From: a virus
Virus record (IMG/VR): IMGVR_UViG_3300025151_000019
Location: 31,640-95,639 of that record
Direction: 5' to 3' (one strand)
DNA: 64,000 bases
How positions within the stretch are numbered: position 1 is the first letter of the stretch; each line of letters opens with the position of its first letter. The position numbers were made by a program, and so were the translations under genes. This document shows, piece by piece, positions 45,605 through 64,000 of the stretch. The notes below the pieces were generated by a model that was given only the letters and a program-made list of their open reading frames with translations, ran no database searches and was not told the DNA's origin.

Positions 45605-45654
45605 TGTTCTTTAAGCAAGGAAGTTTGACACTTTGCATTTTGTTATATGATAAG

Positions 45655-46210: not shown

Positions 46211-46407
46211 TGATAACAAAAGGAGGCTTCATTATAATGTTATGACGCATCTACAACCATATGGTATTAGCGACTCTTAATAAGCGTGTAATTGCGCTCT
46301 TTGGGAAGCAATAAAAGACCCCGAAGGGCGGATATTTTTTGGGGCTGTGAAATATCCGAAAAACACAGGGATTGATTTTCATCAATCCTCTTCGTCAAAG
46401 ACCCCCA

Positions 46408-46941: not shown

Positions 46942-47068
46942 TGTTTCACCGATATTAGCACCATCAACCCACTAATAGGGTTGCGTATACAAAGTAGCAA
47001 CCATATGGTTGTAATGCTTTGCAATGAAAACCTTAACCGATTACAATATCATAGAATCGGTGAAACCA

Positions 47069-47377
47069 ATGGTAAAAACCCAAGAAATAACAGAAACCCA
47101 CGGCCAAAACATTGTTTTAGGCAAATACAAAAAGAACACCCACATTAAGTGCGCCCATGAAGGCATTTTTTGGTTGGTCATGAAGCGATACGAAGATAAG
47201 GATATTATGGGGAATCTAAAAACCCTGACTATCACTTTTGAAGAATGGCTATCATGGCGACAACATCCAAATTATGTTGAGAACGAACAAATCGTCAATC
47301 AGTCTGTCAAAGAATGGGAAACCTTTTTGAAAACGGAAGAAGGCCAAAAGTGGATAAAAGGAGAGGAAGAAGAATGA
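47069..47377 (+). CDS. Hypothetical protein (start MVKTQ)
   Basis: GGTGA RBS before the ATG at 47069. Confidence 0.6.
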   Translation: MVKTQEITETHGQNIVLGKYKKNTHIKCAHEGIFWLVMKRYEDKDIMGNLKTLTITFEEWLSWRQHPNYVENEQIVNQSVKEWETFLKTEEGQKWIKGEEEE

Positions 47378-47671
47378 ATCCTAATTATTTTGATGGGCGT
47401 TGTTCATATTGTGGTAAAGATGAAACCATTTGTGCAGAAAATTGTGAAGGTGAAGAAGAATGATTAAGTGTGAAAAGCCTAAGTCCTGTCAATGTCGTGA
47501 ATGCATTGAAGAAATGTATTCGTTTTATTTTCGTTTGAAGGAGGAAAAACAATGAAGCGAGGCAACCTTGATTTTACAATCTGTCTAAAAGATACACTCG
47601 CTAACTGTATGTGTGATAAGTGTTGGGACGAAAGTGTTGGAGAATATCAGCGAAGGGGGAATTCACAATGA
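47374..47671 (+). CDS. Three ATGA-coupled Cys-rich mini-proteins: 47374-47463, 47460-47555, 47552-47671
   Basis: MNPNYFDGRCSYCG.., MIKCEKPKSCQCREC.., MKRGN..CMCDKCWD..; overlapping stop and start codons. Confidence 0.55.
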
Positions 47672-48015
47672 AATTTTGCCGATGCAATAATTATGAACAC
47701 AATGAATACAATATTGATTGTCCACACAATGATGAAATGGATTTTGTTTTATTTACACGGGCTATTTCAGAAAACTTTTCTCTTGATGGAAAACAGCGTT
47801 GGTCTGATTCTGATGTTATCAATTTCATGATTGAGGATAATAAGTGCAACGACATGATTATGCATTTAATTGCTACAAATTTTCATAAATTTGCAAAATT
47901 CACACTTGAAGATGTTGCAGATTGGGAAGAGCGTGTGATAAACAAAAAGAAGGCATCGTTTTTGATAGGCAATTCGCCTGTTCCACCATATGACCCAGAA
48001 TATAAAGGTGATTGA
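47668..48015 (+). CDS. Hypothetical protein (start MKFCRC)
   Basis: ATGA-coupled to the previous mini-ORF. Confidence 0.55.
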   Translation: MKFCRCNNYEHNEYNIDCPHNDEMDFVLFTRAISENFSLDGKQRWSDSDVINFMIEDNKCNDMIMHLIATNFHKFAKFTLEDVADWEERVINKKKASFLIGNSPVPPYDPEYKGD

Positions 48016-48016
48016 A

Positions 48017-48205
48017 ATGTTCCGAAAGAAGAAAGAAGTGCAACAACAACCAAAACCATTCGTGGTTAAACTCAAACAAGACCGATACCAAAATTGGGTA
48101 TGTGGTGAATTGCGTTGTGAGGCTGATACAATGGAAGAATTACAGGCTGTCGTTCAAGAAGCAACGAAGCAAATTACGGAGGAATTACGGAAGTTAAATG
48201 AATGA
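48017..48205 (+). CDS. Small hypothetical protein
   Basis: GGTGA RBS; MFRKKK.. Confidence 0.5.
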   Translation: MFRKKKEVQQQPKPFVVKLKQDRYQNWVCGELRCEADTMEELQAVVQEATKQITEELRKLNE

Positions 48206-48411
48206 TGCTCTTTGAAAGTTTTGTATGTTTCTTTCAGGTTCTTGGGCTTCGGGTTAAAAAACATACACCTTTTTTTATTTTTTATTTAATTTAGGGTTCT
48301 CTACAAAGTAGAACCATATGGTTTGTGCTTTGCTACAACACCCCATAAGTGATTTTGAGGGGCTAATATCGTTCCTCAAGTGGGAACAAAAGAAAAAAAA
48401 GGTGAAAAAAA

Positions 48412-49032
48412 ATGCCAAAGAAAAACAACGAAAAGAAAGACCTGAGCATGGAAGATGAAGCATGGAACAGCCGTGTTGAAGATGTTGAAACATTTTTAGC
48501 ACACGCTGGAAACCAAGCGTTTCTTTCATCAGACGAAACGATTGAAGATGGTGTGGAATTAATCCGCATGAATATTCGTCGTGGAAACCGAAACCCTGCA
48601 AAGCGGAAGACATTTTGGAAGCAAATCCTTGATGAAGGCCGTGAGTGGAAAAAAGAACATGGCGCAGATGTGGAAATGGATTGGCCGACTTCTCAAGGAA
48701 AGCCATCAAATCTCCCTGTTCATGTTCAACAATCCACTACGGATATTTACAACATGACTTTTGATGCCGCCGTTGATTATTGGAACAATAACCAAATTGT
48801 TCAAATTACTGCAATTCGTTCGGGTCGCAACAAAGAAGAAGGTGGACAACCTTACGCTGATGCTGAAGAATACGCAAAGACTCGTGCTTTTGCTATGAAG
48901 CAACGCTTTGTGAAATTGTTCAATGATGGCCGATGGGATGGAAATTATTCCCTTGAAGAAGGCATGACAATTGCACTACCACCCGCAACAGAAAACGCAG
49001 AAGGTGAAGAAGATGTTTCTGACGATGCTTGA
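48412..49032 (+). CDS. Early-type acidic hypothetical protein (paralogue of 46408-46941)
   Basis: VELIRMNIRRG motif; GGTGA RBS; T-rich terminator-like region downstream. Confidence 0.7.
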   Translation: MPKKNNEKKDLSMEDEAWNSRVEDVETFLAHAGNQAFLSSDETIEDGVELIRMNIRRGNRNPAKRKTFWKQILDEGREWKKEHGADVEMDWPTSQGKPSNLPVHVQQSTTDIYNMTFDAAVDYWNNNQIVQITAIRSGRNKEEGGQPYADAEEYAKTRAFAMKQRFVKLFNDGRWDGNYSLEEGMTIALPPATENAEGEEDVSDDA

Positions 49033-49315
49033 GGAGGAAGATTGACTTAGGTCAATAATCCTCTGGTTTTGAGTTTTTTTCGCAGGGTTTTTCTATCAAA
49101 ACCGTAAGTATTTGTTCGTGTGCCTCCTCCGACCACAGAACAAACCCTGCACCTTTTTAAAAATTATTTTTTCTTTTTTTAATTTTTGATAAGGTATGCC
49201 TGCAAAGCGGCAACCATATGGATTGAAATAAAATTTTAGGTTGAAAGCCCCGAAGTGGGACATACCGTGAGCCGCCCAAAAAGCCCACGATATGCCCCGT
49301 TTCGGAGGTATGTGA

Positions 49316-49768
49316 TTACTCTATATCAAAAAATTCCTCGTCTAAGTCCATCTTTTCCAACAACGCAAAGCGAAGTATGTCGGTCATGGCTCGTTCACGG
49401 TTTGCTTGACGACGCAATTTGTTTAACTTGCCTTCAGCGTCATACATTTTACGCTCGGCTTGTGATTTTCCCATTCGGTCATTTTTTGCACCCTTCATCA
49501 TATCGTCAATTCCCTTCATCGTTTTATTCAGACGGTCAAACGAATCAGCAGGCAATTCAGCGAATACACGCTTGAAGCAATCAAAATTCATTGTTCGGCT
49601 CTCAGTTGGGCGACCCAAAAGAACAGACAACAGATAGACGAAGTTGGTGAACACATTGTTCATATTGCAATATGTCTGTCCCTTCTTCACCCCTGCGTAT
49701 TCACCCAATTGGATGATTTGTTCTTCGGTCAGGTTCTTGTTTTCTTGTGTATGGTCTTCTTCTTCCAT
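49316..49768 (-). CDS. Hypothetical coiled-coil protein
   Basis: AGGAGG RBS; CCATATGG element upstream. Confidence 0.6.
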   Translation of the reverse strand: MEEEDHTQENKNLTEEQIIQLGEYAGVKKGQTYCNMNNVFTNFVYLLSVLLGRPTESRTMNFDCFKRVFAELPADSFDRLNKTMKGIDDMMKGAKNDRMGKSQAERKMYDAEGKLNKLRRQANRERAMTDILRFALLEKMDLDEEFFDIE

Positions 49769-50022
49769 GTTCTATGCCTCCTTAGGCAATAAGATGTTTT
49801 ACAGAAATAAGATAAGGTTGTGACACAAAGTTACAACCATATGGTTCATGCGCCAGCATATTATGAACCATGCAGGGGTGAGCATTAATGTATTGCGATG
49901 ATGAGTGAGTTTTTATTAGTCATTCAATGCTACCATATGGTTCGCATAACGATACGAGCACTTTGTATTAGTGAGTGGGACAGAACCTTGTCTGCCCCTG
50001 ACGGATGATTATTCATCATCCA

Positions 50023-50292
50023 TCAGTATTCCACCCCCAACCGAACAATCTTGAATCCCTTGCGAGCGTTGAGAACATCATCCTGCATCTTGAGGAATTT
50101 CTCACGGTTCACCCCACGAACCGCCGAGGTCATTCGGACAGCATCATTCAATGCACGAATCACCAACATCTCAATGTGGCGGTCAATCACTTGACGGGCT
50201 TTTTCTTCGCTTCGGTAGGCAGTATGGGTGAAAAGCACCCATGCGTTTTCTTGGTTCTTCTTCATCACTATGAATTGGCTCATTTCATTCAC
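50023..50292 (-). CDS. Hypothetical protein
   Basis: GGTGA RBS; CCATATGG element upstream. Confidence 0.55.
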   Translation of the reverse strand: MNEMSQFIVMKKNQENAWVLFTHTAYRSEEKARQVIDRHIEMLVIRALNDAVRMTSAVRGVNREKFLKMQDDVLNARKGFKIVRLGVEY

Positions 50293-50578
50293 CGAAGTTA
50301 TGTTGTTCAGTATAGGTATAGGGTAAAATCACAAAGTTATTACCATATGGTTCTACTTTGGAGGTTCCCAATTTTTTTCTAATTAAAAATAAAACTTCAC
50401 ATGGTAGCATGGTCAAAAGCCATCATAGTGAAAATCGCCAATCTTGCAGACCCTAACACCATACAATTTACCGTTTTGTGGAAATCAATTTGCATTATAG
50501 TGTAATTTTGCGGCTAAGCCAGGAATACATAGGCTTATATCTGTAATAACCACCTACTACATACAAGGAGATACTAAA

Positions 50579-51094: not shown

Positions 51095-51439
51095 ATGGGC
51101 TGGTTTAACCTATTGAAGAGTCCCAAAGGGTATTATTCTTCTGATTCGGAAAAGAGATATAATTACCACTTTAGAAAAATGAAAGAATTTAAGGATGATT
51201 ACAAAGAGTATTGGTATAAGTCCGACAAATGGGGAATATCAATGAAAAGGGTCTATGGTGGAAAATATGAATTTCATAAAAAAATGGCTGAAAAGGCAAG
51301 TAAAGGATTAACGACTCTCTATGAACCTGAGAATGGTTATGAGGAATATGAATCTGAAGAATATAAAAATGCAGAAAAGACTCAGCATCTTGCCTTTGAC
51401 CCATTTAATTTAAAAGACGAGCCATATGTTGAAGGTTGA
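51095..51439 (+). CDS. W-x-x-ILK leader family protein 1 (MGWFNLLK)
   Basis: Shared N-terminal leader; TATA-like TATATTTATA at about 51037. Confidence 0.7.
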   Translation: MGWFNLLKSPKGYYSSDSEKRYNYHFRKMKEFKDDYKEYWYKSDKWGISMKRVYGGKYEFHKKMAEKASKGLTTLYEPENGYEEYESEEYKNAEKTQHLAFDPFNLKDEPYVEG

Positions 51440-51444
51440 TTATT

Positions 51445-51858
51445 ATGGGCTGGTTTGACTTATTGAAGCAGTTCACTTTAGAGCATAACAGGGAAAGATT
51501 GGCTCAATTAGAAAATCAGTTTAGAAATCCTAAAAAGGCAATTGGTTATTTACCTATTGTTTGGGCGGCAGGTATTGAGGATGAGGTTCGCAGTTTAGCA
51601 TCAAATTTAGATTTAGAGTATAAAATGTATGATGCTAAGGGTAGGCCAAGAAGAGAGGATGGTAATTCTTTTGGTAATGGTGGGCATTTTATGTGGAGGC
51701 CAGAAGATGTTGAGCAGGTCTTAGATAAAACGGAATTTCAAGATGTGCAAAGTTTAATTGATTTTATTGCATATAATTCCTATGTTAATAAGCCGTATAG
51801 AAGAGTTATTGATGGCTTATTTGGAACTCCTAATGTAGTCTTGGGGTGTGAAAGATGA
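51445..51858 (+). CDS. Leader family protein 2 (MGWFDLLK)
   Basis: Shared leader. Confidence 0.7.
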   Translation: MGWFDLLKQFTLEHNRERLAQLENQFRNPKKAIGYLPIVWAAGIEDEVRSLASNLDLEYKMYDAKGRPRREDGNSFGNGGHFMWRPEDVEQVLDKTEFQDVQSLIDFIAYNSYVNKPYRRVIDGLFGTPNVVLGCER

Positions 51859-52196
51859 GTTGGTTCGGTATATTGAAAATGTCCAAGTTTGAAAAGTTTG
51901 GGCAAGCCGCCGTTATTGATGGATTATTTTGGGACAGAATAAAATATACGGAAGATTTTCCTGAGGGTAGACCAGCAGATGAAGGTGATGGAAAAAAGGG
52001 ATATTATAGATTTTTTATTTATCAGGATGAAGTAGATTGGAAAACTAAAAAGGAAGAGCCTCCATTTATGGCACCAAGATTAAATGTGCCCTATGCTGAT
52101 ATATTTGTAAATAAAGAGGCAACCGATTTTAAATTTATTGCGGGTGATGAAGATTTTTACAATAGACTTAGAAATTTGTGGGATGGGGTAGAATGA
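51855..52196 (+). CDS. Leader family protein 3 (MSWFGILK)
   Basis: Shared leader. Confidence 0.7.
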   Translation: MSWFGILKMSKFEKFGQAAVIDGLFWDRIKYTEDFPEGRPADEGDGKKGYYRFFIYQDEVDWKTKKEEPPFMAPRLNVPYADIFVNKEATDFKFIAGDEDFYNRLRNLWDGVE

Positions 52197-52747
52197 GTTG
52201 GTTTGACTTATTAAAGAATATTCAAATCTCAAGTCAGAAGACTTCTTCTAAGGACTATGTGTTACCAGAAGAAGATGAAGAATGTAAAGAATGGTGGTTA
52301 AATCTGGAAGATATGTTAAATGCTCTTGCATCTAAACTTCACCCCGAAAATGGTGATAAAGCATTTTACTTTGACTTTGTTAGAAGTAAATCTGAAGATG
52401 AACTTTGTATTTTGAGAGATGATGTTACAAGAAGATGGAGTTTTTCATATTATTCAAAAGAAACATTATTGAGGAATGTATTTAGGTCTAATAAAAGTCA
52501 CTTTTGGATAAGTGCCTATGAAATAAGACCAGACTATACTTGCATAATATCTTTAAGCGTCAGTGGACCAGAAGACTATTATTCCGAAGAAATTTTATGG
52601 AAAGATTTAAACGAATACCCAGCCGATTACAGAACAGAGATTGATGCTATTGGTAAGCAATTAAAAACGGGAGGTCTATTACTATCATTTATGGACAAGA
52701 CTTCTGACATGGCGAGAGACATGGCGAGAGAGGAGGAAGAAAAATGA
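52193..52747 (+). CDS. Leader + NIQ-repeat family protein
   Basis: MSWFDLLK-NIQISSQKTSSKDYVLPEEDEEC. Confidence 0.75.
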   Translation: MSWFDLLKNIQISSQKTSSKDYVLPEEDEECKEWWLNLEDMLNALASKLHPENGDKAFYFDFVRSKSEDELCILRDDVTRRWSFSYYSKETLLRNVFRSNKSHFWISAYEIRPDYTCIISLSVSGPEDYYSEEILWKDLNEYPADYRTEIDAIGKQLKTGGLLLSFMDKTSDMARDMAREEEEK

Positions 52748-53247
52748 AGTGGCAGGAAATTTTAAAAAATATTCAAATTAGTAGTCAAAGGACTTCATCA
52801 AAGGACTATGTTAAGCCTGATGAAAAGGAAGATTGCTTTCAGTATTTTTACGATTTAGTTAAAATATTAGATAAGAAATTTGAACTAAAAAGAACGATAT
52901 TTCCTGAAGACTATTGGTGTGAGTTATTTAAACAAGAATGGGTAATAGATACTAGGGCAGATGATACTTGGGCATATTTGGGGGATAACCCTGAAAGCCG
53001 AACCGAACTTGAATATGATATTGTGATAATAATGAGTAAGGACAAATTTAGATTAGGGGACGCATATGTTGATATTATATTTGGAGATGTGGGGGAAGGT
53101 CGTGAATTTGTGGTTAAAACCCCTACTGAGGATAGTGGATTTTGGCTTCGTAACTACCACCCTGAAATGCCTAATTTAAAATATGAAACTTCTGATAGAA
53201 TAGGTTCTATTATTGATGAAGTTAATAGACATGTGAGGGGCAAATAA
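52744..53247 (+). CDS. Leader + NIQ-repeat family protein
   Basis: MKWQEILK-NIQISSQRTSSKDYVKPDEKEDC. Confidence 0.75.
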   Translation: MKWQEILKNIQISSQRTSSKDYVKPDEKEDCFQYFYDLVKILDKKFELKRTIFPEDYWCELFKQEWVIDTRADDTWAYLGDNPESRTELEYDIVIIMSKDKFRLGDAYVDIIFGDVGEGREFVVKTPTEDSGFWLRNYHPEMPNLKYETSDRIGSIIDEVNRHVRGK

Positions 53248-53864
53248 TGTGGCGAGATATTCTTAAAAATATACAGATTAGTGGACAGAGGACTTCCTCA
53301 AGAGATTATGTCCTACCTGATGAAGAAGACGATAGTTGTAAAGAAAGATTTTTTGAGATGATGGAGTTCATTGAAAATAATTGGGAAGGTTCGGTAGATA
53401 GTGATGATGAGGGTGTAGAAGAATGGCCTGAGGAGGTCTACTGTAAGGCTTTAGAATTTATCAATAAGCATACATTCCTATTTCACAATCCTATCCATGA
53501 AGGAAATCCTGAAACTAAATGGACTGACCTTTACAAATATGATAACGCCTTTTCCTTTTATGAGGACACGGGTTTTAAAAGTGATTATGAAGTGAATTTG
53601 GGAATGGGTTTTAAATTAAGATTAACTTATAGAATGGTGGCGTTAAGACCGAATGTAATTAATATTTTTTGTCAAGCAATTATGGGAAATATTAATTTTA
53701 TGTCCTTTGCATCATTTCAAATTTATGAAACATTTAATATTTCAGGTGATGAATTTTCGGCTTTGCTTAGTGAAGAACCGTATGATGATGGTGTGACCAT
53801 TGTTGGAATACCTAAGAATATTGACCCAAGTTATATCAAGAACAAGGATTGGAGGAATTTTTAA
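53247..53864 (+). CDS. Leader + NIQ-repeat family protein
   Basis: MWRDILK-NIQISGQRTSSRDYVLPDEEDDSC. Confidence 0.75.
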   Translation: MWRDILKNIQISGQRTSSRDYVLPDEEDDSCKERFFEMMEFIENNWEGSVDSDDEGVEEWPEEVYCKALEFINKHTFLFHNPIHEGNPETKWTDLYKYDNAFSFYEDTGFKSDYEVNLGMGFKLRLTYRMVALRPNVINIFCQAIMGNINFMSFASFQIYETFNISGDEFSALLSEEPYDDGVTIVGIPKNIDPSYIKNKDWRNF

Positions 53865-54457
53865 TGTGGCGTGATGTTCTCAAGAATATTCAAATTAGTT
53901 CTCAAAGAACGGGCAGCAAGAACTATGCAGAACCCGACGAAGAAGATGATTGTGTAAAAAGATTTTATGCAGTTATGGAAAAATTAAAAAATCTTCAAAT
54001 TGACGGCCTTGAAAAAGAGGAAACAGAATATGGGCAATTTTTCTTTTATGAAGATGGGAAAGAGTTTGAAGATTTTAAAAATATGGATATGCAAATTGCA
54101 GTTTATCCAGATGCTTTTGGTAATGTGCCCAATGAAATTTTTTGTCTTGCTATTGAGCAATATGAAAATACACCCATAGGAGGTCATAAATTTAAAAAAC
54201 ATGACACCTTTAGAATAATAACAGACAGAGGCAAAGTAGCATCAAGCACATCTAATTACATGACAAGTTATGATGAATTAGTATACTACATAATTATTGC
54301 TAAGGGAGACCATATTGATGATTCCCCTTATGAGGCAGCAAGTATTTTTGTCCGTATTAGAAAATATCGCAAAGGTAGGTATGGAGAAGATGGATTTGTA
54401 AATTTAGAGTTAGTTGATAAACTTAAAAATACAATAGATAAGGTGATGTTATTTTGA
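53864..54457 (+). CDS. Leader + NIQ-repeat family protein
   Basis: MWRDVLK-NIQISSQRTGSKNYAEPDEEDDC. Confidence 0.75.
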   Translation: MWRDVLKNIQISSQRTGSKNYAEPDEEDDCVKRFYAVMEKLKNLQIDGLEKEETEYGQFFFYEDGKEFEDFKNMDMQIAVYPDAFGNVPNEIFCLAIEQYENTPIGGHKFKKHDTFRIITDRGKVASSTSNYMTSYDELVYYIIIAKGDHIDDSPYEAASIFVRIRKYRKGRYGEDGFVNLELVDKLKNTIDKVMLF

Positions 54458-54993
54458 AGTGGGAAGACATTCTTAAAAATATCCAAATTGCTGGTCAAAG
54501 AACCAGCAGTAAGGATTATGTAAAACCTGATGAGCCTGACGAATGTTTAACGAAGTTATTGAATCTATCAGATGAGTATCTTAAACTACAAAGAGTGATT
54601 AATTGGAGATATTACTTAGACACATATTGGAATACAGGTGATTTAGCCGTAACACAGGGTTTTAAAGACCCTATCATGGAAGAAACTTGGCCGAGCAAAT
54701 ATGGAATTAGCGAAGATATTCTTTGTTGGTGGGTTGAGAATTTAAAATTACCAGACCATAAATTACCAACTAATAGAGAAGAAAATTATATAGGATTTGC
54801 CACCAAAAAAGACGGCGAAGATAGGGCTTGGTTTTATGCAGACTTTTTTGAATATAAAAGTAAAGGTAAAAAATGTGTAAGGGTTAAAGTTAGATTAATT
54901 TACAAAACAGCCACACATTTTTATTCCGTCTTTAATATTACAGGGCCATCCTACGAAGAGGTTAGAGATTTTATAGCGGAGGCGGTATCATGA
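54454..54993 (+). CDS. Leader + NIQ-repeat family protein (TTG start)
   Basis: MKWEDILK-NIQIAGQRTSSKDYVKPDEPDEC. Confidence 0.75.
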   Translation: MKWEDILKNIQIAGQRTSSKDYVKPDEPDECLTKLLNLSDEYLKLQRVINWRYYLDTYWNTGDLAVTQGFKDPIMEETWPSKYGISEDILCWWVENLKLPDHKLPTNREENYIGFATKKDGEDRAWFYADFFEYKSKGKKCVRVKVRLIYKTATHFYSVFNITGPSYEEVRDFIAEAVS

Positions 54994-55544
54994 AATGGTT
55001 TCAAATACTAAAGAACATACAAATTGGTAGTCAAAAAACAGGTAGTAAGAATTATGTTAAGCCCGATGAACCTGAAGAGGATTGCTTTGAATGGTTTAAA
55101 CAGTTATATTACCTAATGCAAGGTGAAGAGATTATTGAGCCAGATATGGATATACAACCTTTTAGGGAATACACTAATGAAAAATTATGGTGTCCATTGA
55201 AAAAAGGTATTAAATTTTCAAGAACGACAATGATGAGACAGCCTGGAGTTCAGACTTTGAATTTTAAATCAACAGTATTATTATCGGGAGAAAAGGTTAC
55301 ATTCACTTTATGGGTAGATGTTCCCGAACCAAGTTCAAGATTCGGAGATGATAACTCCTACAATATGTATTTTTCATTGGACTCTACTGCACGAGAAAGA
55401 ATTGATGTAGAATTTTTCCAAATGGCTCAAACAAGAAAACCAACAAAATATGATTTGTATGGTGGAACCCGCAGAATACAGTTTGAGAATTATAAGAAAA
55501 TTGCTGTCAAGGTCGTGAATTATATGAAGGAGGCGATGGGATGA
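54990..55544 (+). CDS. Leader + NIQ-repeat family protein
   Basis: MKWFQILK-NIQIGSQKTGSKNYVKPDEPEEDC. Confidence 0.75.
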   Translation: MKWFQILKNIQIGSQKTGSKNYVKPDEPEEDCFEWFKQLYYLMQGEEIIEPDMDIQPFREYTNEKLWCPLKKGIKFSRTTMMRQPGVQTLNFKSTVLLSGEKVTFTLWVDVPEPSSRFGDDNSYNMYFSLDSTARERIDVEFFQMAQTRKPTKYDLYGGTRRIQFENYKKIAVKVVNYMKEAMG

Positions 55545-57961
55545 ATTGGGAAGATATTTTGAAAAATATACAGATTAGTAGCCAAAGGACAGGAAGCCGT
55601 GAATATGTAAAGCCTGACGAAGATGAAGAAGTTCCAAATGTGGAACAGGAAGATGAAGATTGTCGTCAATGGTGGAAAGATTTAATGGATATGTGTGATA
55701 AACTATTAGATTATGTATCAGTTGCTAAATACAAAAGGTCGGGATATTTCAAAAATCCAGAATATATGGATAATGAACTATTATGTAAAGCAAAGGAAGT
55801 AATAATTGACCCATCAAAAGACCACAGACTTACGGGAAGATTTAGTTCTAAGCCAGATTGGTATAAATATGACTTTAGGGTAATAGCATTTGGTTCATTG
55901 CAAACATCTTTATCTTTTATTTTTAATACTAACGATGATAACACAATGAGGCCGCGACCTACTTTAACAATTAAGATGCTTATTGAAGGTGAACCAATTT
56001 ATGATAAGACTTCCTCTTTTAATTATGACCATCTCAGTTCGTGGATGGAAATTTCAACAGAGTATGTTATTGAAGAAATTAGTAGTCATATTGACACATC
56101 TAAATTGAGAGAATATATAGAAGAGGTTGATAGGTTATACATAGGATGGGCTAATTCACAAGATGAATTAAACAAGTCCACAATTCAAATTGGTTCACAA
56201 AAGACCTCAAGTAGAGATTATGTGAAGCCAGAAGAAGATGATGAAGATTGTTTTAAATGGTGGAATGGTCTATTTAAAATTATAAAAAGAATGATTTTAG
56301 AGGTGAATAGTGAGTATTCCTCCGACACTCTTGATAATATCAATTTTAAAAATTTAACTAATAAGTATTTATGCGAAAGAAAGGAAAAAATTCTTAAAAA
56401 TCCTCCTCAGTTTTATTTATTAGTAGCGGGATATTATAAATATATGAGTGAACCCGGAGACCCGCTTAATTTTTCTGCATCTGTTGATAAATTAACTCCC
56501 TCAATATTTTTTTATGTGAAATTACATGCACATGTAACTCCCATAAAAGAAGAAGTTTGGGTTCAACTTGAAGAAAATACAAAGGATATTAAGACCTATA
56601 CTCCAGCCGCAGCATTAGAATTAGTAAAGAAATTTCATACTGCTGAATTAGATTTAATGGATTATTTAAATATTGATGGTAACCCTTTAATGACAGCAGA
56701 ACTTATTGAAATTTATGACGATTACCTTAGAGAAACTTTTGATGTAAAGAAAAACATTCAAATTAGCGGACAAAGGACAAGTAGTAGGGACTATGTTAAA
56801 CCTGACGAAGATGATGAAGATTGTAGAGAATGGTGGAGAGAACTTCATAAAATTTTTAATAAAATGATTAGTGCTATTGATAGAAATGCTACACTTGTTA
56901 TTGATAATAAAGTTGAGAAAACGGACAACCAAATCTTATGCGAACTTAGAGATGCTATTCTTAAGATGGATGTAGAGCAAAATACAGCAGGCACATATGG
57001 AAGAAATTTTGTATATAGAAAGGAAGTCATTAAACCTTCTACTCGTGGTGATAAAGTTATCAATATGGGAAACGGAGGTTTAGGTATATATGGAAAAATG
57101 TTAGATACTAAACCCGGCCCTTATTCTGGCTCATACGCCACACGCTTAAACGATAAAATAAATTTCTATTCTTATTATGGCCCTGTGTTCAATCAAACTA
57201 CTTTATTTGATGCAAATGTTTCAATTTGGAACGATAGCATTCTATACGAATTAAACAGAATAAAGGAAAAAACAGGTGAAGGAAAATTGTATGCTTATAG
57301 TGTTGTTGAACCATTTTTGGAAGCAGAACTGGAACTTAAGAAACACATCAACGACCCCAACCCTGCACCATTTATTGCTTCAAAAATAATTGCTATTTAT
57401 GAAACCTACCTCAATTCGGATGTTAAGAAATCTATTACAGTTAGTTCCCAGAAAATATCAGGTAGGAACTATGTCAAACCAGAAGAACCAAATTGCTATG
57501 AGAAAGTTCAAAAAATTGCAGATAAAATTATGAAATTTACTTATCCTGATAAATTTAATATGGACAACCCAGTTAGGGAAAGTAAATATTCTAAATTCTA
57601 CATTAAGGATTATTATCAAGGAATGCCTGTTTCTGAAATAAATGAAAGTGACCGTTTATCTTTAGAAACACACTTTATTGAAAATTTAGATGAAGAAACT
57701 TGTTGTTTAATTTTAGAGACTATTGATAAATACAAAGGACAAAATTTTGTTGAAGCAGAAGTTTCCGCACCAATGGCTGATGGCGCAGAAAAGGGACTAT
57801 TTATTTATACTAAAGAAATTACTACCCAGACCTGTTGGATTCAGATATTTTTCTCGTCAGGGAAACATATCGCCGCCACATTATCTATAAAGTTAGACAT
57901 ACAAACATACATACACCCAAACACTATTATAGATATTGAAGACATATTTGAATCACGATAA
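55541..57961 (+). CDS. Four-unit polyprotein of the NIQ-repeat family
   Basis: Leader plus NIQ motif at the start and three internal copies at about 56170, 56745 and 57422. Confidence 0.8.
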   Translation: MNWEDILKNIQISSQRTGSREYVKPDEDEEVPNVEQEDEDCRQWWKDLMDMCDKLLDYVSVAKYKRSGYFKNPEYMDNELLCKAKEVIIDPSKDHRLTGRFSSKPDWYKYDFRVIAFGSLQTSLSFIFNTNDDNTMRPRPTLTIKMLIEGEPIYDKTSSFNYDHLSSWMEISTEYVIEEISSHIDTSKLREYIEEVDRLYIGWANSQDELNKSTIQIGSQKTSSRDYVKPEEDDEDCFKWWNGLFKIIKRMILEVNSEYSSDTLDNINFKNLTNKYLCERKEKILKNPPQFYLLVAGYYKYMSEPGDPLNFSASVDKLTPSIFFYVKLHAHVTPIKEEVWVQLEENTKDIKTYTPAAALELVKKFHTAELDLMDYLNIDGNPLMTAELIEIYDDYLRETFDVKKNIQISGQRTSSRDYVKPDEDDEDCREWWRELHKIFNKMISAIDRNATLVIDNKVEKTDNQILCELRDAILKMDVEQNTAGTYGRNFVYRKEVIKPSTRGDKVINMGNGGLGIYGKMLDTKPGPYSGSYATRLNDKINFYSYYGPVFNQTTLFDANVSIWNDSILYELNRIKEKTGEGKLYAYSVVEPFLEAELELKKHINDPNPAPFIASKIIAIYETYLNSDVKKSITVSSQKISGRNYVKPEEPNCYEKVQKIADKIMKFTYPDKFNMDNPVRESKYSKFYIKDYYQGMPVSEINESDRLSLETHFIENLDEETCCLILETIDKYKGQNFVEAEVSAPMADGAEKGLFIYTKEITTQTCWIQIFFSSGKHIAATLSIKLDIQTYIHPNTIIDIEDIFESR

Positions 57962-57999
57962 GATTATATAATAGTTAAATAAATAATGAGGTGAGCAAC

Positions 58000-58272
58000 A
58001 TGAGTTGGCGAGATATTTTAAAATCTAATTGCACCGAAAAAATGGGATGCCGTTGTGAAGAATGTGCAAAGAAAGCAGAACTTTCTCCTAAGCAAAAGAA
58101 AATCGCTGAAGCGGCAGAACCTAAAGATAAAATTACAGGTGAGGATTTTAAAGAACTAAAGAAGAAGGCTAAGGTCAAGTGTCCTAAGTGTAAGGGAAAG
58201 GGTTGCGACCATTGTAAAAATACAGGCTATCACGAAGTAAGAAGTAGAGGCGCATTTACGGACAGGGATTAA
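58000..58272 (+). CDS. Leader family protein: basic, Cys-rich
   Basis: MSWRDILK; LSPKQKKIA..KITGEDF; CPKCKGKGCDHC. Confidence 0.7.
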   Translation: MSWRDILKSNCTEKMGCRCEECAKKAELSPKQKKIAEAAEPKDKITGEDFKELKKKAKVKCPKCKGKGCDHCKNTGYHEVRSRGAFTDRD

Positions 58273-58273
58273 A

Positions 58274-58543
58274 ATGTCATGGGAAGATACTCTTTGTAAA
58301 GGTGGTCGTTGCACAAGAGCAACAAAAAAGACCTCCTCAACAAGAAAGGGTAAAAAATGGATGAAGTGTGTTAAAAACCGTAAAGGTAAAGGATATGTTA
58401 GAAGACATTGGGGGCAAAAGGGAGTTACTGTTTCTGGTAAAAGAAGCGGTAAGCGAAGGAGTCAGTTTAGAGCAAGACATAATTGTAAATCTTGTAAAGG
58501 TGGAGACAATTCTCCGAGATGTTTGGCTTGTGGGGATTGGTAA
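58274..58543 (+). CDS. Leader family protein: very basic, Cys/His-containing
   Basis: MSWEDTLCK; KKWMKCV..HWGQKG..FRARHNC. Confidence 0.7.
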   Translation: MSWEDTLCKGGRCTRATKKTSSTRKGKKWMKCVKNRKGKGYVRRHWGQKGVTVSGKRSGKRRSQFRARHNCKSCKGGDNSPRCLACGDW

Positions 58544-58545
58544 TT

Positions 58546-59271
58546 ATGGATTGGTTTGATGAACTCCAAAAAAAGAAAGAGAAGGGAATGAGAAAACTAT
58601 CACAATATTTAGAGGATAACGGATTTAGTATCGTTGAACAAGAAGAAGGAGGAAAGCATTTAACAATCAAGGTTAGGAGACTTGAAGATAAAAATGATGT
58701 TGATGCACAAACAGTCGTTACAACAGTTTCACATAAAACATCTGGAGATTCGGGAAAGGGTCGTCTAAAAATGGTATTAAGAGAAATTCAAAATTTATTT
58801 AGAGGTAGAAAAAGAAGAGGACAAGGTGAGTTTAAGTTGTCGGAAAATTATAAAGAAGAAACATGGACAGATATTTTAAAAATAGATGGTGGTTCTATTG
58901 TGCAGTTTATTCAACTGTTAGTAGATGCAGATTTACCGCTTCAAATGGCGAGAAAATTAAATGGGAAAATGAAGGAATTATATCCTACTGGAGATAGCGA
59001 AAGCATCCGACCTAAACGAAGACTTTCTGATAATAAGTCTATTAGATATTTTAATGATAAGGTTAAAGCGATGTCTGTTCAAAAAAGAGCAAGAATCGCA
59101 TCCAAAATAGCAGGACTTTATGAGACTACTGACGACACTTCAATGAAACCTGGAGAGGGTTATGATGGTTCAGTTCGTTCACAAACACGACCAGAACAAT
59201 TTGAAAATATCACAGATGCTGAATTAGAAATGTTAGTTAAATATATGCTACACCTAATTGAAACGATGTGA
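58546..59271 (+). CDS. Leader family protein with a HicA-like N-domain and an internal second leader
   Basis: MDWFDELQK; LEDNGF..GGKHLTIKV; internal WTDILK. Confidence 0.65.
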   Translation: MDWFDELQKKKEKGMRKLSQYLEDNGFSIVEQEEGGKHLTIKVRRLEDKNDVDAQTVVTTVSHKTSGDSGKGRLKMVLREIQNLFRGRKRRGQGEFKLSENYKEETWTDILKIDGGSIVQFIQLLVDADLPLQMARKLNGKMKELYPTGDSESIRPKRRLSDNKSIRYFNDKVKAMSVQKRARIASKIAGLYETTDDTSMKPGEGYDGSVRSQTRPEQFENITDAELEMLVKYMLHLIETM

Positions 59272-59276
59272 TATGT

Positions 59277-59564
59277 ATGGCTTGGGAAAGTATCATCAAG
59301 AGAAAGGAATTGCCCGCACCTAAAAATAGTGGTGTTAAAGACAGGGTTCTTTCAGATTTTGAAGTGCCTACCCTAAGAGATAGACTTGGCCCGTATGAAA
59401 AAAAGGTTCCTGGAATTGAAATTTTTGAAGCCCTTCACGAAAGATTAGTTAGTATTATAACTTTTATTATTTTGGAAGAAAATAAGTATAAAATTTCTCC
59501 AGAACTTAAAGAAATCAAAAGAGAGATAAAGGAGTTACAAGAATTATTTGAGAATTTTTATTGA
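59277..59564 (+). CDS. Leader family protein (MAWESIIK)
   Basis: Shared leader. Confidence 0.65.
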   Translation: MAWESIIKRKELPAPKNSGVKDRVLSDFEVPTLRDRLGPYEKKVPGIEIFEALHERLVSIITFIILEENKYKISPELKEIKREIKELQELFENFY

Positions 59565-59573
59565 GGGGTAAAT

Positions 59574-59933
59574 ATGACTTGGGAAAATATTTTAAAAACC
59601 GAATTTGAAGTGGTTGAAGAATATAATATATACGACGACCCAAAGTTTTACACACCTAAACAACGAGACAGAAAGAAAAAGGAAATGGAAGAGGCTAAAC
59701 GAAGATTAGGTCGGGATAATTTCATGGTGAGAGAGATTCCAGATATGGAACAAGTAAGACATAGAAATATTAACATTAGTATCATGAGAGAGGCAATAGA
59801 TGATGCTTTAGAATTAGTTGATTTGTATAAAGATATTCCTTCAGTAGATAAAATGAAAGTTAGGGAAATTGAGCGTAGAATAAAAAAGATAGCAACAATG
59901 CTTCAAAGTTCTAAATTAACACAACCATTGTAG
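59574..59933 (+). CDS. Leader family protein (MTWENILK)
   Basis: Shared leader. Confidence 0.7.
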   Translation: MTWENILKTEFEVVEEYNIYDDPKFYTPKQRDRKKKEMEEAKRRLGRDNFMVREIPDMEQVRHRNINISIMREAIDDALELVDLYKDIPSVDKMKVREIERRIKKIATMLQSSKLTQPL

Positions 59934-59943
59934 GAGGGATAAA

Positions 59944-60789
59944 ATGTCTTGGGAAAATATTGTTAAAAGAACCAATAAGATTAATCTTATTAATGCCTAC
60001 AAAGAAGCCATTAAAAAATATTATGAAGAAAATGATTTAGGTGAATTTGATTTAGAAAGACTCCACTCAGAAAGTAAAGATTATGCAATTACATATCTTC
60101 GCAGGCATCCAAATGTAAATCCAAGGGCAGTAAGTTCTTGGTTTAAACACAAGTCAAAAAACGTATTACGACAAGTTATTTTACCAGCGATGCAAAATGA
60201 GGGATTAATTGAAAGAATTAATTCTAAAAGACAAACAGGTTTATACAAATCTTGGGACTCTACATTAAAATCAAAAGCAACTAAGGCAAGAAGATTAGTT
60301 GAAAAGACTATCAAGGAAATGGTAGAACAATATGTTGAAGGTAAAGATAAAATTTTTACTGAGGATTTAAAGCAGCATATTATTGATAATTTAAAAGCCG
60401 AGCATATTAAAAGACACTCAGTTGATGGTAAAGTAAGTAATGTTATTTCACGACAGCCTACCCAATATATTCAACATAAATTAGAGACTACATTCCCTAC
60501 TAAAATTATACCAATGGCAAAAAGTTTTGGGTATGGTATAGTATATGGAAGACCGAGCCGAGGAAAACCTACATATCTTATTAAGAAATCAGACTCTTGG
60601 GAATCAATGACTGATTCCATGATTGCAGAAGGTAAATTATTTGAAGCAATCTACGCCGCTATCTTGCAGAAATTTAAATTCTCAGCACCATCTAAGGAAA
60701 AGGTTGTTGCCTACCTAAATGCTAATTATGAAAGGCATCCTTTATTTAGTAATAAGTGGTCTACTAAAAATGAGGGTGAGGGTCAATGA
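59944..60789 (+). CDS. Leader family multi-unit protein
   Basis: MSWENIVK; internal KSWDSTLKS and KKSDSWESM. Confidence 0.7.
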   Translation: MSWENIVKRTNKINLINAYKEAIKKYYEENDLGEFDLERLHSESKDYAITYLRRHPNVNPRAVSSWFKHKSKNVLRQVILPAMQNEGLIERINSKRQTGLYKSWDSTLKSKATKARRLVEKTIKEMVEQYVEGKDKIFTEDLKQHIIDNLKAEHIKRHSVDGKVSNVISRQPTQYIQHKLETTFPTKIIPMAKSFGYGIVYGRPSRGKPTYLIKKSDSWESMTDSMIAEGKLFEAIYAAILQKFKFSAPSKEKVVAYLNANYERHPLFSNKWSTKNEGEGQ

Positions 60790-61301
60790 GTTGGAAACAA
60801 ATTTTAAAACTTGCCAGAACAAATAATCCTACTCCTGAAAAACTACACGGAAACGATGCGTATTTAGTAAATGATGATATTTATAGAGAGGCTGGCGGTT
60901 CAGTAATAGATTTTAGTAGAATGAAACCAGACGGAACCTATGAGTCCAGCGAAGGCGATAGATTTATGGATATTGAAGATATTGAAGAAGCCATAGGAAG
61001 AAAATTAACAATTAATGATTTTAAAAACCATCACCTTAATTGGAAAAGCAACACAAATAAAACTCTATTAGATAGAGTCGGCGGTCTTAGGGGACAACAA
61101 CAATTAGCAGAAAATCAAATTGAAGAAATGCTTGATGGGTTACATAGAGGACAACCTGTTGATTCACCGCAAACATATTTTAATATTTTTAAAGCATTTA
61201 TGGAAATATTTGGTGATAAATCCCGACTTGTTGATGAGGTTATTTATGCCTTAAGAACATACATGGGTATTTATGCTACAAGGCAAGGTGATGGTCAATG
61301 A
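60786..61301 (+). CDS. Leader family protein (MSWKQILK)
   Basis: Shared leader. Confidence 0.7.
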   Translation: MSWKQILKLARTNNPTPEKLHGNDAYLVNDDIYREAGGSVIDFSRMKPDGTYESSEGDRFMDIEDIEEAIGRKLTINDFKNHHLNWKSNTNKTLLDRVGGLRGQQQLAENQIEEMLDGLHRGQPVDSPQTYFNIFKAFMEIFGDKSRLVDEVIYALRTYMGIYATRQGDGQ

Positions 61302-61474
61302 GTTGGAAAAGGTTAATCAAAGAATATACTCGTGAGGATAGTTTAGAATATTTATTTGGTCAAGTTTATGAAGTGCTTGGGGACTTAGAATTTAATGTTA
61401 TGAAAGAAAAAGATTACTCGGATGAGTTCAAAACTTTTAAAAAAGTATTAGAGGATTTATTTAAGGAGTTGTAA
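61298..61474 (+). CDS. Leader family 58-aa protein (MSWKRLIK; not in the ORF track)
   Basis: Translated by hand; fills the gap exactly. Confidence 0.65.
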   Translation: MSWKRLIKEYTREDSLEYLFGQVYEVLGDLEFNVMKEKDYSDEFKTFKKVLEDLFKEL

Positions 61475-61476
61475 TA

Positions 61477-61707
61477 ATGAGTTGGGAAGACATTCTTAAG
61501 AGAAATAAGGGTGGAAGAGGTCGCACCCGTAAAAAGGGCAAGGCTCGCAAGAAAAGAAAAAAGGCGAGCAGAAAAAAAGATGCCTGTTATAATAAGGTTC
61601 GTTCTCGCTACAAAAAATGGCCTTCTGCGTATGCTTCAGGTGCATTAGTTCGTTGTCGTAAGGTGGGTGCTAAAAATTGGGGCAACAAATCAAAGAAAAA
61701 GAAGTGA
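61477..61707 (+). CDS. Leader family protein: K/R-rich, protamine-like
   Basis: MSWEDILK-RNKGGRGRTRKK..KKDACYNKV..WPSAYASGALVRCRK. Confidence 0.7.
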   Translation: MSWEDILKRNKGGRGRTRKKGKARKKRKKASRKKDACYNKVRSRYKKWPSAYASGALVRCRKVGAKNWGNKSKKKK

Positions 61708-61711
61708 TAAT

Positions 61712-62101
61712 ATGAATTGGGAAATTATTTTAAAGGAACTTGCCTGTCCAAGAGCAACACAGGATTTAAAACTAAATACTAAAAATCGTGATGCTTCTAT
61801 TAAAGCAGAACACATCCAATACGGACCACTTAATTTAGAAGACGAAGGTTATTGGGTTAAAGCCGCAGACCATTGGAATACCACACCAGAAGTTGCTAAA
61901 AAATCTCTTTGTAGTAATTGTGTAGCCTTTGATATTTCACCTCGCATGGAAAAGTGTATGCCTTTGGAGGGCGATTTAGGCTACTGTTGGATGCATCACT
62001 TCAAATGTCATAAAGATAGAACTTGCTATACTTGGGCAAAGGGCGGACCTATTGACGACGATAAAACTTCAAAAGAAAATCAAATGAGGGGAAAACAATG
62101 A
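61712..62101 (+). CDS. Leader family protein: Cys-rich metal-binding
   Basis: MNWEIILK; CPRATQD..CSNCVAF..YCWMHHFKC..RTCYTW. Confidence 0.7.
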   Translation: MNWEIILKELACPRATQDLKLNTKNRDASIKAEHIQYGPLNLEDEGYWVKAADHWNTTPEVAKKSLCSNCVAFDISPRMEKCMPLEGDLGYCWMHHFKCHKDRTCYTWAKGGPIDDDKTSKENQMRGKQ

Positions 62102-62682
62102 GTTGGGAAGACATTTTAAAATCAGGCTCTCAAAGTCGTAGAACTAAAAATGTTATACACAAGTCAGTTAAAAAATTAATTTTAGAATTTGCTAAAGGAA
62201 AAGATTCTTTTGATAAATTTGACCTTATGAATTATATTGATAATAATTTAGTTGAGCAGGTTAAACAGGATGGAGAACTTGCTAAAATAATTAATGAAAA
62301 TCAGGTCGCAAGAAGAACTAATGCTTATTTAAAAATTGTTGATAATTATTCAACAATTTGGCATAAATATCTTGCGATACAAGGTTATACATTTACAAGA
62401 GAATCTTCTGGAACTAATCGTGGTGGCTCTTTTTCTAAAAATACATTATCTAAAGCAAAACTGCCAGCCGTTAAAACGGAAAAATATAATCTCTATGTTG
62501 TGTTCCTAAAGAAAATTCTAAAGAAAGAAGGTGGTGCTGCTGGAATGAAAAATTTCCTTGAAGAAGGAAAGAAGATGAAAAACTTTGATGAGAGATTCTT
62601 AAACTATGTAATTAGTGATGCACTTGACCACGGCAATTGGTTAGCCGAACACGAATATGGAGACTTTTATTTAAAGGAGTGA
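62098..62682 (+). CDS. Leader family protein (MSWEDILK)
   Basis: Shared leader; helical domain similar to the second unit of 59944-60789. Confidence 0.7.
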   Translation: MSWEDILKSGSQSRRTKNVIHKSVKKLILEFAKGKDSFDKFDLMNYIDNNLVEQVKQDGELAKIINENQVARRTNAYLKIVDNYSTIWHKYLAIQGYTFTRESSGTNRGGSFSKNTLSKAKLPAVKTEKYNLYVVFLKKILKKEGGAAGMKNFLEEGKKMKNFDERFLNYVISDALDHGNWLAEHEYGDFYLKE

Positions 62683-62687
62683 TTTAG

Positions 62688-63053
62688 GTGTCTTGGGAAG
62701 ATATTCTTCAAAAGAAATCAGCGGCCCGACGAAAGAAGGGTTCTAAGTCCCGTAAAAAGAAAGCACGAAGAGGTGGTAAGTCTCGTAAAAGAAGTGGGAA
62801 GTCTCGTAAAAGAAGTGGGGATAATTTAAAGCGTGAAAAAGACAAGGGACTTCACGGATGGTTTGAAAGAGCAGGTGGAAAAGAAAACAAGGATGGTAAA
62901 AGACAGAAAGGTTGGATTGCTTGCGGAACCTGTAATCAAAAAAATGGTCCGAAACCATGTGGAAGAAAGGATGCTTCAAAGGGAAGAAAAAGAAGATGCA
63001 GACCAACATGTGCTGCCTGTAAAACATACAAAAGAAGGAAGGGAACACCATGA
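62688..63053 (+). CDS. Leader family protein: K/R-rich with a Cys cluster (GTG start)
   Basis: MSWEDILQK; KSRKRSG repeats; GWIACGTC..PCGR..CRPTCAAC. Confidence 0.7.
   Translation: MSWEDILQKKSAARRKKGSKSRKKKARRGGKSRKRSGKSRKRSGDNLKREKDKGLHGWFERAGGKENKDGKRQKGWIACGTCNQKNGPKPCGRKDASKGRKRRCRPTCAACKTYKRRKGTP
62778..62819 (+). repeat. Perfect 21-bp tandem duplication encoding KSRKRSG twice
   Basis: AAGTCTCGTAAAAGAAGTGGG occurs twice in tandem. Confidence 0.9.
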
Positions 63054-63913
63054 ATAATTGGAAGAATATTCTTAAGGCCGACAATATTGGTTTTTACGGA
63101 AGTAAATCGGCTGCTTGGTATGACCCCACTACTAAAGAAACATATGTAAATTTAAATAGAATAGTAGGTTTAGATGATTTTTTAGATGCCGACTTACATG
63201 AAACTATACACCAATTTACATATGACGACATACAAGAAAAAATAAAAGAAGTTGTAGACGAAGAAACTAAATTTCTAATAAATAGACCTGATTTATATAG
63301 AGTTGAAGGAAACAAAGTTCAACCTAAGAGACAACTTTTCAATGAAGTTATTTATCACAGTGATAAAATAGCATCCCACATAGCATTTACAGAAATTGTA
63401 ACACTTATTCAGTCCCGAACTAAAGTAAATTATGAAAATGTTGCTCGTGATGAACAGGGCGAGTCTAATTATGCAGAACTTGACCAACATTATAGCGATA
63501 GACAGAATGTATTAGGTTATAGTAATCAATTTACGGAGGAAATGAAAGCGGCATATGCCCCCATGTGGATAAATATTATGAGAGGGGCGTTAAATGCTTT
63601 AGGTGTAGACTATGACGAAGATAAACCTGGGAGAAATTTTCGTGAACATATAACGGAAAGGGGTTTTAACAGACTTAGAAAATTAAGAGATGATTTTTTC
63701 CGCAACATGGGAAATGAGGCGGCATATATATTGTTAAAGGTTTTAGAAGCAAATGAACAAGCCTTTGAACCAACGCTGGATTATATTAAAAAACCAGAAT
63801 CCTACGCTGATGCTAAGGAAAGAATGAAAAGGTTTGAAGAAGAATCCCCTGAAGATAGAGCAAAGAGAATTAAAGATAAAGTTAAGAAAGCCCTGAGGAA
63901 AAAAAATGAATAA
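63050..63913 (+). CDS. Leader family protein with an HExxH zinc-metallopeptidase-like motif
   Basis: MNNWKNILK; AWYDP..YVNL..DLHETIH. Confidence 0.65.
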   Translation: MNNWKNILKADNIGFYGSKSAAWYDPTTKETYVNLNRIVGLDDFLDADLHETIHQFTYDDIQEKIKEVVDEETKFLINRPDLYRVEGNKVQPKRQLFNEVIYHSDKIASHIAFTEIVTLIQSRTKVNYENVARDEQGESNYAELDQHYSDRQNVLGYSNQFTEEMKAAYAPMWINIMRGALNALGVDYDEDKPGRNFREHITERGFNRLRKLRDDFFRNMGNEAAYILLKVLEANEQAFEPTLDYIKKPESYADAKERMKRFEEESPEDRAKRIKDKVKKALRKKNE

Positions 63914-64000
63914 ATCTTGGAGTGATATTTTAAAAAATATCCAAATTTCTGGACAGAGAACATCAAGTAGAGATTATGTAAAACCAGAAAAAGACGACGA
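63906..64000 (+). CDS. Leader + NIQ-repeat family protein (truncated by the window end)
   Basis: MNKSWSDILK-NIQISGQRTSSRDYVKPEKDD. Confidence 0.75.
   Translation, partial: MNKSWSDILKNIQISGQRTSSRDYVKPEKDD

Follow-up and report, generated by a model that had tools for sequence, protein, structure and literature searches.

The subject of this analysis is a run of genes in the final 64 kb of a 95,639-bp virus contig (IMG/VR record IMGVR_UViG_3300025151_000019, positions 31,640 to 95,639); this stretch of 64,000 nucleotides is referred to here as the window. From position 51095 to the window end, 24 consecutive genes on the + strand encode proteins that all carry an N-terminal tag of the form M-x-W-x-x-(I/L/V)-(L/I/V)-K. 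By gene content the genome belongs to a magrovirus, one of the tailed viruses that infect marine group II archaea, and because the first 99 bases of the contig recur at its end as a 99-bp direct repeat, the assembly is closed. The + strand carries the tail genes at 322-16394, among them those for the tail tube and a tape-measure-like protein, and a replication block on the - strand encodes a family B polymerase, an ATP ligase, ribonucleotide reductase and a GMP-reductase-like gene. Beyond the window are genes for the large terminase (TerL), the portal, an S78 prohead protease fused to the scaffold, and a capsid protein of the SU10/HVTV-1 family. A preliminary description of this DNA, made from the letters and their translations, had counted at least 24 tagged genes in succession and had seen no such leader on tail or replication genes; both statements hold, the tag being absent from the tail and replication genes in window positions 1-51000.

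Organization of the tagged array

If the canonical tag is defined as M, 0-2 residues and then W-x-x-[ILV]-[LIV]-K, 21 of the 24 window tags are canonical and three, at 58274 (MSWEDTLCK), 58546 (MDWFDELQK) and 62688 (SWEDILQK), are degenerate. A strict DNA pattern for W-x-x-[IV]-L-K has 17 matches (2.26 +/- 1.55 in shuffles), and 16 of them fall within 51861-63935 on the + strand. For 54001-64000 no RNA runs are listed. Each tagged start is preceded at 5-10 nt by a Shine-Dalgarno sequence of normal type. This includes the two genes with non-ATG starts, in both of which the spacing is usual: gene 8, at 54454, starts with TTG, its TTGA overlapping the stop of the preceding gene and GGTGA lying 6 nt upstream, and gene 22, at 62688, starts with GTG and occupies what had appeared to be a 368-nt gap.

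The first three genes (51095..51439, 51445..51858 and 51855..52196) encode proteins of 114, 137 and 113 residues that begin MGWFNLLK, MGWFDLLK and MSWFGILK, respectively. In gene 4 (52193..52747, 184 residues) the tag MSWFDLLK leads into an NIQISSQ stalk, and this gene belongs to a paralogous family, here called NIQ, together with gene 5 (52744..53247, MKWQEILK, 167 residues), gene 6 (53247..53864, MWRDILK, 205 residues), gene 7 (53864..54457, MWRDVLK, 197 residues), gene 8 (54454..54993, TTG read as M and then KWEDILK, 179 residues) and gene 9 (54990..55544, MKWFQILK, 184 residues). Gene 10 (55541..57961, MNWEDILK, 806 residues) contains four NIQ units in tandem, and at its three internal junctions K-(N/S)-I-(Q/T) is retained and W-x-x-I-L is lost. 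The family accounts for 10 of the 24 window genes and 11 units, at 52193-57961 and 63906-64000. Immediately behind the tag its members have a constant stalk of 40 residues, made up of NIQISSQRTSS-K/R-DYV, an acidic run and a Cys, and beyond the stalk a hypervariable body. No NIQ genes were found in 200-odd other fetched loci, apart from a module fused to homologues of gene 23.

The genes that follow vary in length and composition. Gene 11 (58000..58272, MSWRDILK, 90 residues) carries four CxxC pairs, and gene 12 (58274..58543, 89 residues), the first with a degenerate tag, is K/R- and Cys-rich. Gene 13 (58546..59271, 241 residues), also degenerate at its start, has a second, internal tag, ETWTDILK, at 58858-58881. 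After genes 14 (59277..59564, MAWESIIK, 95 residues) and 15 (59574..59933, MTWENILK, 119 residues) comes gene 16 (59944..60789, MSWENIVK, 281 residues), with an internal tag-like KSWDSTLK at 60247-60270. Genes 17 (60786..61301, MSWKQILK, 171 residues) and 18 (61298..61474, MSWKRLIK, 58 residues) precede gene 19 (61477..61707, MSWEDILK, 76 residues), which is K/R-rich with a protamine-like composition, the Cys-rich gene 20 (61712..62101, MNWEIILK, 129 residues) and gene 21 (62098..62682, MSWEDILK, 194 residues). Gene 22 (62688..63056, GTG read as M and then SWEDILQK, 122 residues) is K/R- and Cys-rich, and gene 23 (63050..63913, MNNWKNILK, 287 residues) has an invariant H50-E51-x-x-H54 and E71. 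Gene 24 (63906..64000, MNKSWSDILK and an NIQ stalk) leaves the window and ends at genome position 679, giving a protein of 224 residues.

Tagged genes continue into the head module

The array passes the contig end into the head genes, where seven tagged genes are found, including the continuation of gene 24 (from position 5 of locus L001). The others begin at L001 positions 1626 (395 residues), 4743 and 5000 (two small genes), 11793 (100 residues, just before the terminase gene), 16546 (73 residues, with a variant of the tag) and 16995 (794 residues, directly after the portal). In many phages the position after the portal is occupied by internal head proteins. Among the large head-region proteins is one of 769 residues before the terminase region (L001:6095-8404, +) that starts M-L-I-L-K, a tag without its Trp; its orthologue in genome G001 starts MSWISILK. 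In another protein family the tag is interrupted by an insertion (MTW-DYYDTGKEF-ILK). The large head-region proteins have no match in PHROGs, and phmmer against the PDB gave none for the 794-, 769- and 839-residue proteins.

The head module also contains an ATP-dependent DNA ligase gene directly before the prohead protease (L002:1624-3990, +; genome 20624-22990), in agreement with Philosof et al. (2017) on magroviruses; its product may be another virion-associated enzyme.

The tag is a trait of one virus clade

The preliminary description had proposed a scan of the full genome and of related magroviruses. In nine full genomes assembled from fetched stretches there are 12-26 tagged open reading frames (ORFs) per genome, equal to 9-20% of all ORFs, and 149 of the 150 lie on the structural strand (Fisher p about 1e-46); the single one off that strand is a doubtful ORF, and no tagged gene lies within a replication module. 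The structural strand opens with an array of tagged genes, and others are interspersed among the genes for the large pre-terminase proteins, TerL, portal, scaffold and capsid or, in one genome, lie between head and tail genes. The tag Lys is nearly invariant (146/150).

In virus records more widely, the exact form M-[S/T]-WEDILK is present in at least 119 IMG/VR stretches, most with further tagged ORFs, and the loci fetched from them comprise 648 distinct tagged ORFs with a median length of 108 residues (range 37-840). Among the records checked, all 12 complete IMG/VR records with the exact form encode a full-length match to the capsid protein at 50-56% identity. Halovirus HVTV-1, which belongs to the same capsid family, has no tag in its head module, and more distant capsid representatives yielded only tagless viruses or no locus. 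A scan of 596 gigabases of cellular genomes gave 29 scattered single matches, near the chance level, with few at ORF starts and none in archaea. The tag is a trait of the virus clade and not of cells. A host N-terminal sorting signal was considered and rejected, as none of the cellular matches was archaeal and the tagged proteins lack membrane-like segments. The motif was not found in the literature searched, and the magrovirus papers are silent on it.

The 184,733-bp IMG/VR record behind locus L063 has two magrovirus-type capsid genes about 91 kb apart and is probably two genomes joined in assembly.

The conserved entity is the peptide

The codons used for the tag Ile and Lys follow background usage, those for Leu are more varied than background, and copies of the tag are 60-80% identical as DNA. 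Since synonymous codons vary freely, it is the peptide that is conserved, as the preliminary description had argued from the differing codons of the window copies. When the arrays of genomes G007 (44000-50300) and G010 (15400-21400, both in oriented coordinates) are compared, the homology blocks have 12 ends, 6 of which lie between -5 and +24 nt relative to the start codon of a tagged gene, and four tagged cassettes, each bounded precisely by two tags, occur in one genome and not in the other. Cassettes may be exchanged with the tag DNA as the junction; such exchange is best regarded as a side effect, and a role at the level of DNA would be at most that.

The tag is also found at C-termini and internal junctions

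The preliminary description took the tag to be an N-terminal leader, and in this respect it has to be revised, since the tag is not strictly N-terminal. Seven structural-strand proteins have a tag 1-7 residues from the C-terminus, where about two would be expected (p 0.005), among them GNAT acetyltransferases encoded just upstream of TerL. At this position three relatives (L217:12181-12654, L213:18933-19445 and L238:2562-3062, all on the - strand) have a gene with a tag-like C-terminal tail, for example S-K-W-M-E-V-L-K-W-N-stop; Pfam GNAT acetyltransferase models match two of the three products, and the third is without a Pfam match. In the present genome the 100-residue gene, tagged at its N-terminus, takes this position. 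We also considered that the small gene before TerL might encode a small terminase subunit, and rejected this assignment on finding GNAT acetyltransferases there in relatives.

Internal tags are found where tagged proteins have been joined. In relatives a single protein comprises gene 23 and a module of the gene 24 type, and its NIQISGQ is immediately preceded by a conserved internal K-K-S-W-x-G-V-L-K. This junction is not an internal start, since Met is missing from it in two of the four full-length fused forms. In the relative G005 (L228:11847-12683, -) a tagged, soluble PAP2 phosphatase is fused to a body like that of gene 22 with an internal KSWENILQ between them, and the half of gene 13 behind its internal tag occurs elsewhere as a 130-residue protein that starts MQETWTDILK. 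Orthologues also gain, lose, shorten or split the tag. Together, these sequence arrangements suggest that the tag acts as a peptide regardless of its position in the chain.

Tagged proteins are small, soluble and fast-changing

Apart from the tag, the proteins have little in common. By blastp, 73% of tagged and 38% of untagged proteins in the nine genomes are singletons (p 6e-16), and a membrane-like segment is predicted in none of 149 tagged proteins vs 63 of 458 untagged proteins of the same strand (14%; p 1e-8). A quarter of the tagged proteins have an isoelectric point above 9.5. Pfam matches among 107 tagged proteins of the nine genomes are limited to PAP2 (3), DUF5754 (2) and DUF6321 (1), and the few bodies that can be recognised are GNAT acetyltransferases and soluble PAP2 phosphatases whose catalytic motifs are intact.

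The preliminary description had listed as cargo K/R-rich, Cys-rich, HicA-like and HExxH peptidase-like proteins and the NIQ family. The K/R-rich and Cys-rich bodies and the NIQ family stand, but the HicA-like label does not, as a Pfam search at E<=0.05 with 20 tagged proteins of this genome returned nothing beyond two chance-level matches. As for the peptidase-like protein, the HExxH motif of gene 23 is invariant in seven homologues, but we found no family or fold to go with it: its AlphaFold2 model has a mean pLDDT (predicted local distance difference test) of 60, with both the tag and the HExxH region below 50, a Foldseek search with this model gave no match with E <= 0.001, and the ESM Atlas offered nothing usable on gene 23 or on one NIQ gene. 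The body of gene 22, K/R- and Cys-rich with G-W-F ... C-x-x-C ... P-C-G-R ... C-R-P-T, looks like a DNA- or metal-binding module.

The tag resembles the C-terminal tail of the scaffold proteins

Two scaffold proteins are encoded in the head module: the protease-scaffold fusion and a smaller, scaffold-like protein of 75 residues (the mini-scaffold), which is encoded two genes downstream of the portal. Their C-terminal tails contain M-(S/D)-W-x-(D/E)-I and are conserved among relatives of 93% down to about 50% identity. When all internal Trp sites of each of the nine genomes (264-348 per genome) were ranked by a six-position profile of the tag, both scaffold C-terminal Trp sites took places between first and fourth. 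The tail of one clade, MDWSDIHK, matches 6 of the 8 tag positions, Lys included. Distant tagless relatives keep a scaffold tail as well (K-M-S-F-E-E-L-N or M-N-F-A-D-V-H-K-M), and because these viruses of the same capsid family have the tail without the tag, the tail is older than the tag. From its sequence the tag looks like a copy of the scaffold tail.

A proposed docking peptide for capsid cargo

From these sequence comparisons we lean slightly towards reading the tag as a portable docking peptide through which soluble cargo would use the scaffold's binding site and so come to lie within the head as it assembles. While a procapsid is being built, it is the scaffold tail that holds on to the capsid protein at its inner face. 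The docking core of the tag, M-x-W-x-(D/E)-(I/V), would copy the C-terminal tail of the protease-scaffold and mini-scaffold, and because these tails grip the capsid protein, a tagged protein would be caught at the same site, probably on the N-terminal arm (N-arm). The cargo would then be enclosed in the head and would leave it with the DNA at infection. Small soluble proteins would make up this cargo, in a large and rapidly changing assortment that includes enzymes such as a PAP2 phosphatase and a GNAT acetyltransferase, basic Cys-rich proteins resembling DNA binders, the HExxH protein and numerous orphans. Capsid binding, enclosure and delivery are the parts of the docking reading that we infer. 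A subsequent cut by the head protease after the tag Lys is a somewhat doubtful extension of it.

The preliminary description had likewise proposed an address tag for loading the head. That idea gains indirect support from the confinement of tagged genes to the structural strand among head genes, from the solubility of the cargo and from the match to the scaffold tail.

Several observations weigh against docking. The likeness between tag and tail spans six residues only, and the L-K end is absent from most tails. Covariation of tag and tail across clades was looked for and not seen, the tag consensus being constant in the nine genomes while the tails vary. On the cargo the tag is N-terminal and on the scaffolds C-terminal, so that the direction of the chain is reversed relative to the body. 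The structural strand begins, beside the divergent region, with the main array, and early host-takeover genes could have the same location. Finally, 9-20% of all genes would be far more cargo than in any known capsid-targeting system. A complex prediction with the capsid protein (57-row alignment) and a 58-residue tagged protein (27-row alignment) scored 0.00 and counts neither way.

Alternative readings: cleavage mark, other partner or nucleotide signal

A first alternative, compatible with docking, is that the tag mainly tells the head maturation protease where to cut, as a propeptide or polyprotein junction that ends in hydrophobic-hydrophobic-Lys, with targeting supplied from elsewhere. 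The fused proteins fit such a mark, both in the conserved junction before NIQISGQ, which is not an internal start, and in the KSWENILQ retained in the PAP2 fusion. The head proteins themselves offer possible sites: the capsid N-arm has an L-L-K whose Lys, K28, does not vary among 57 sequences and lies at the point where conservation drops, related capsid families show [IL]-x-K before D-A-P at the equivalent place, and the scaffold part has 3-6 hydrophobic-hydrophobic-Lys sites in most genomes, where 1.2 are expected. However, this last enrichment is weak and absent in two genomes, and the VILK of the protease lies just upstream of its S78 profile match (from residue 29) and may belong to the fold. 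The residue after the tag Lys shows no preference, and the loss of eight N-terminal residues would have no evident purpose without targeting. With just 1-7 residues behind a C-terminal tag, a cut there would remove almost nothing, and tags so near the end are more readily understood as binding peptides than as a removable leader. We consider cleavage as the main role unlikely.

A second alternative has the tag dock late proteins to some other partner, such as a chaperonin, a ubiquitin-like conjugation set with the invariant Lys as acceptor, or the hub of a virus factory. Candidate partners are at hand, in that magroviruses encode a thermosome or GroEL (PMC5434244) and 8 of the 9 genomes have a small modifier ending in GG, and the near invariance of the tag Lys would suit an acceptor. 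But the chaperonin and the conjugation set lie in the replication block, whereas the tag is confined to the structural strand, and a partner of this kind offers no explanation for why both scaffold proteins end in a tag-like motif. Both systems are near-universal in the clade, so that co-occurrence cannot separate them from the capsid genes. This too we regard as improbable.

That the conserved stretch acts as DNA or RNA, as a shared junction (Shine-Dalgarno, start codon and 24 nt) for cassette recombination or as a translation-initiation signal of which the peptide is a by-product, is very improbable and was rejected as the main cause, because, for all the block ends and cassettes that coincide with tags in G007 and G010, variation at synonymous sites is as free as in other places or freer, DNA identity between copies is no more than 60-80%, the peptide is kept at C-termini and internal junctions where there is no start site, and gene borders are the usual mosaic breakpoints of phages anyway.

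Comparison with known systems

One of the closest known systems is that of bacteriophage T4. Its capsid targeting sequence (CTS) has about 10 residues and is cut at L/I-x-E, and to our knowledge bears no sequence likeness to MSWEDILK. The internal proteins of T4 share only a capsid targeting sequence (PMC3012670). In T4 (IPI-III, Alt), as here, a short N-terminal peptide alone is common to unrelated, fast-evolving proteins of a tailed virus, the cargo consists of basic proteins and an enzyme acting on the host, and the genes vary between relatives, the internal-protein locus of T-even phages being polymorphic (PMC3012670); in the present case such a peptide stands on 24 window genes and on 150 genes in the nine genomes. 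The differences are that T4 has about six tagged proteins vs 12-26 per genome here, that the T4 tag targets the scaffolding core whereas the magrovirus tag resembles the scaffold's own tail, and that the magrovirus tag is also found at C-termini and junctions. The host here is an archaeon, and packaging and cleavage are putative.

A second close parallel is provided by phage 80alpha and SaPI1. The last 16 residues of the 80alpha scaffold form an amphipathic helix and a hook ending in R-I-I-K that binds the capsid N-arm, and CpmB of SaPI1, an unrelated protein, binds the same N-arm site with the same tail (PMC5644958). Similarly, the magrovirus scaffold, mini-scaffold and many unrelated proteins share M-x-W-x-(D/E)-(I/V), the tags ending in I-L-K; over the first six positions the motif is shared with the virus's own scaffold tail in all nine genomes. 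There is no sequence homology between the two cases, CpmB is a single protein that alters capsid size and is not cargo, and the 80alpha tail is always C-terminal.

A short terminal peptide reportedly suffices for enclosure in an HK97-fold shell in two further cases, the C-terminal tail of the HK97 maturation protease and the cargo-loading peptides of encapsulins, each with one or few cargo types per system. An encapsulin is an HK97-fold shell without portal, terminase or tail; the present virus encodes TerL, portal, prohead protease, capsid and tail proteins, and its shell is not an encapsulin. The cleavage of the HK97 capsid after K103, which the preliminary description had set beside the tag Lys, is an analogy only. 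In the giant phages phiKZ and SPN3US, dozens of head-internal proteins are processed by the prohead protease (PMC5694885, PMC7411985); their propeptides share the cleavage motif alone and vary in length and sequence, in contrast to the constant eight-residue tag.

New here are the count of 24 genes with two non-ATG starts, the strand and membrane-segment statistics for nine genomes and the negative cellular scan, together with the rank test on the scaffold tails, the greater age of the tail, the C-terminal tags on GNAT enzymes and the fused homologues with an internal tag.

Other features of the genome

The replication block contains a complete gene of the IMP dehydrogenase / GMP reductase family (window 24904-25944, -; Pfam E 5e-89), in contrast to the founding magrovirus paper, which reports no auxiliary metabolic genes. 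Adjacent tRNA genes for Arg(TCT) and Leu(TAA) are found at window 43245-43410 (-), and their anticodons read AGA and TTA, the Arg and Leu codons favoured in A+T-rich genomes.

Implications

In its broadest form the proposal is that a peptide derived from the scaffold tail serves as a universal address, by which up to a fifth of the gene products would be loaded and delivered with the DNA, and that the tag is also the junction at which cassettes are swapped, fused or split and possibly a protease site; we put this fuller version a little below an even chance. In that version no archaeal virus would have had a capsid-targeting system described before, and the cargo repertoire would be by far the largest known for any tailed virus. 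Magroviruses are among the most abundant archaeal viruses of the surface ocean, most of their genes are without known function, and virus and host form an uncultured, ecologically important pair. For them, if docking is correct, a simple sequence rule would identify the proteins carried into the host, which are likely to be host-takeover and anti-defence factors. With the tag, eight residues would also be enough to load foreign proteins into an HK97-fold shell, and it would mean that cargo tags can arise by copying the scaffold's grip on the capsid.

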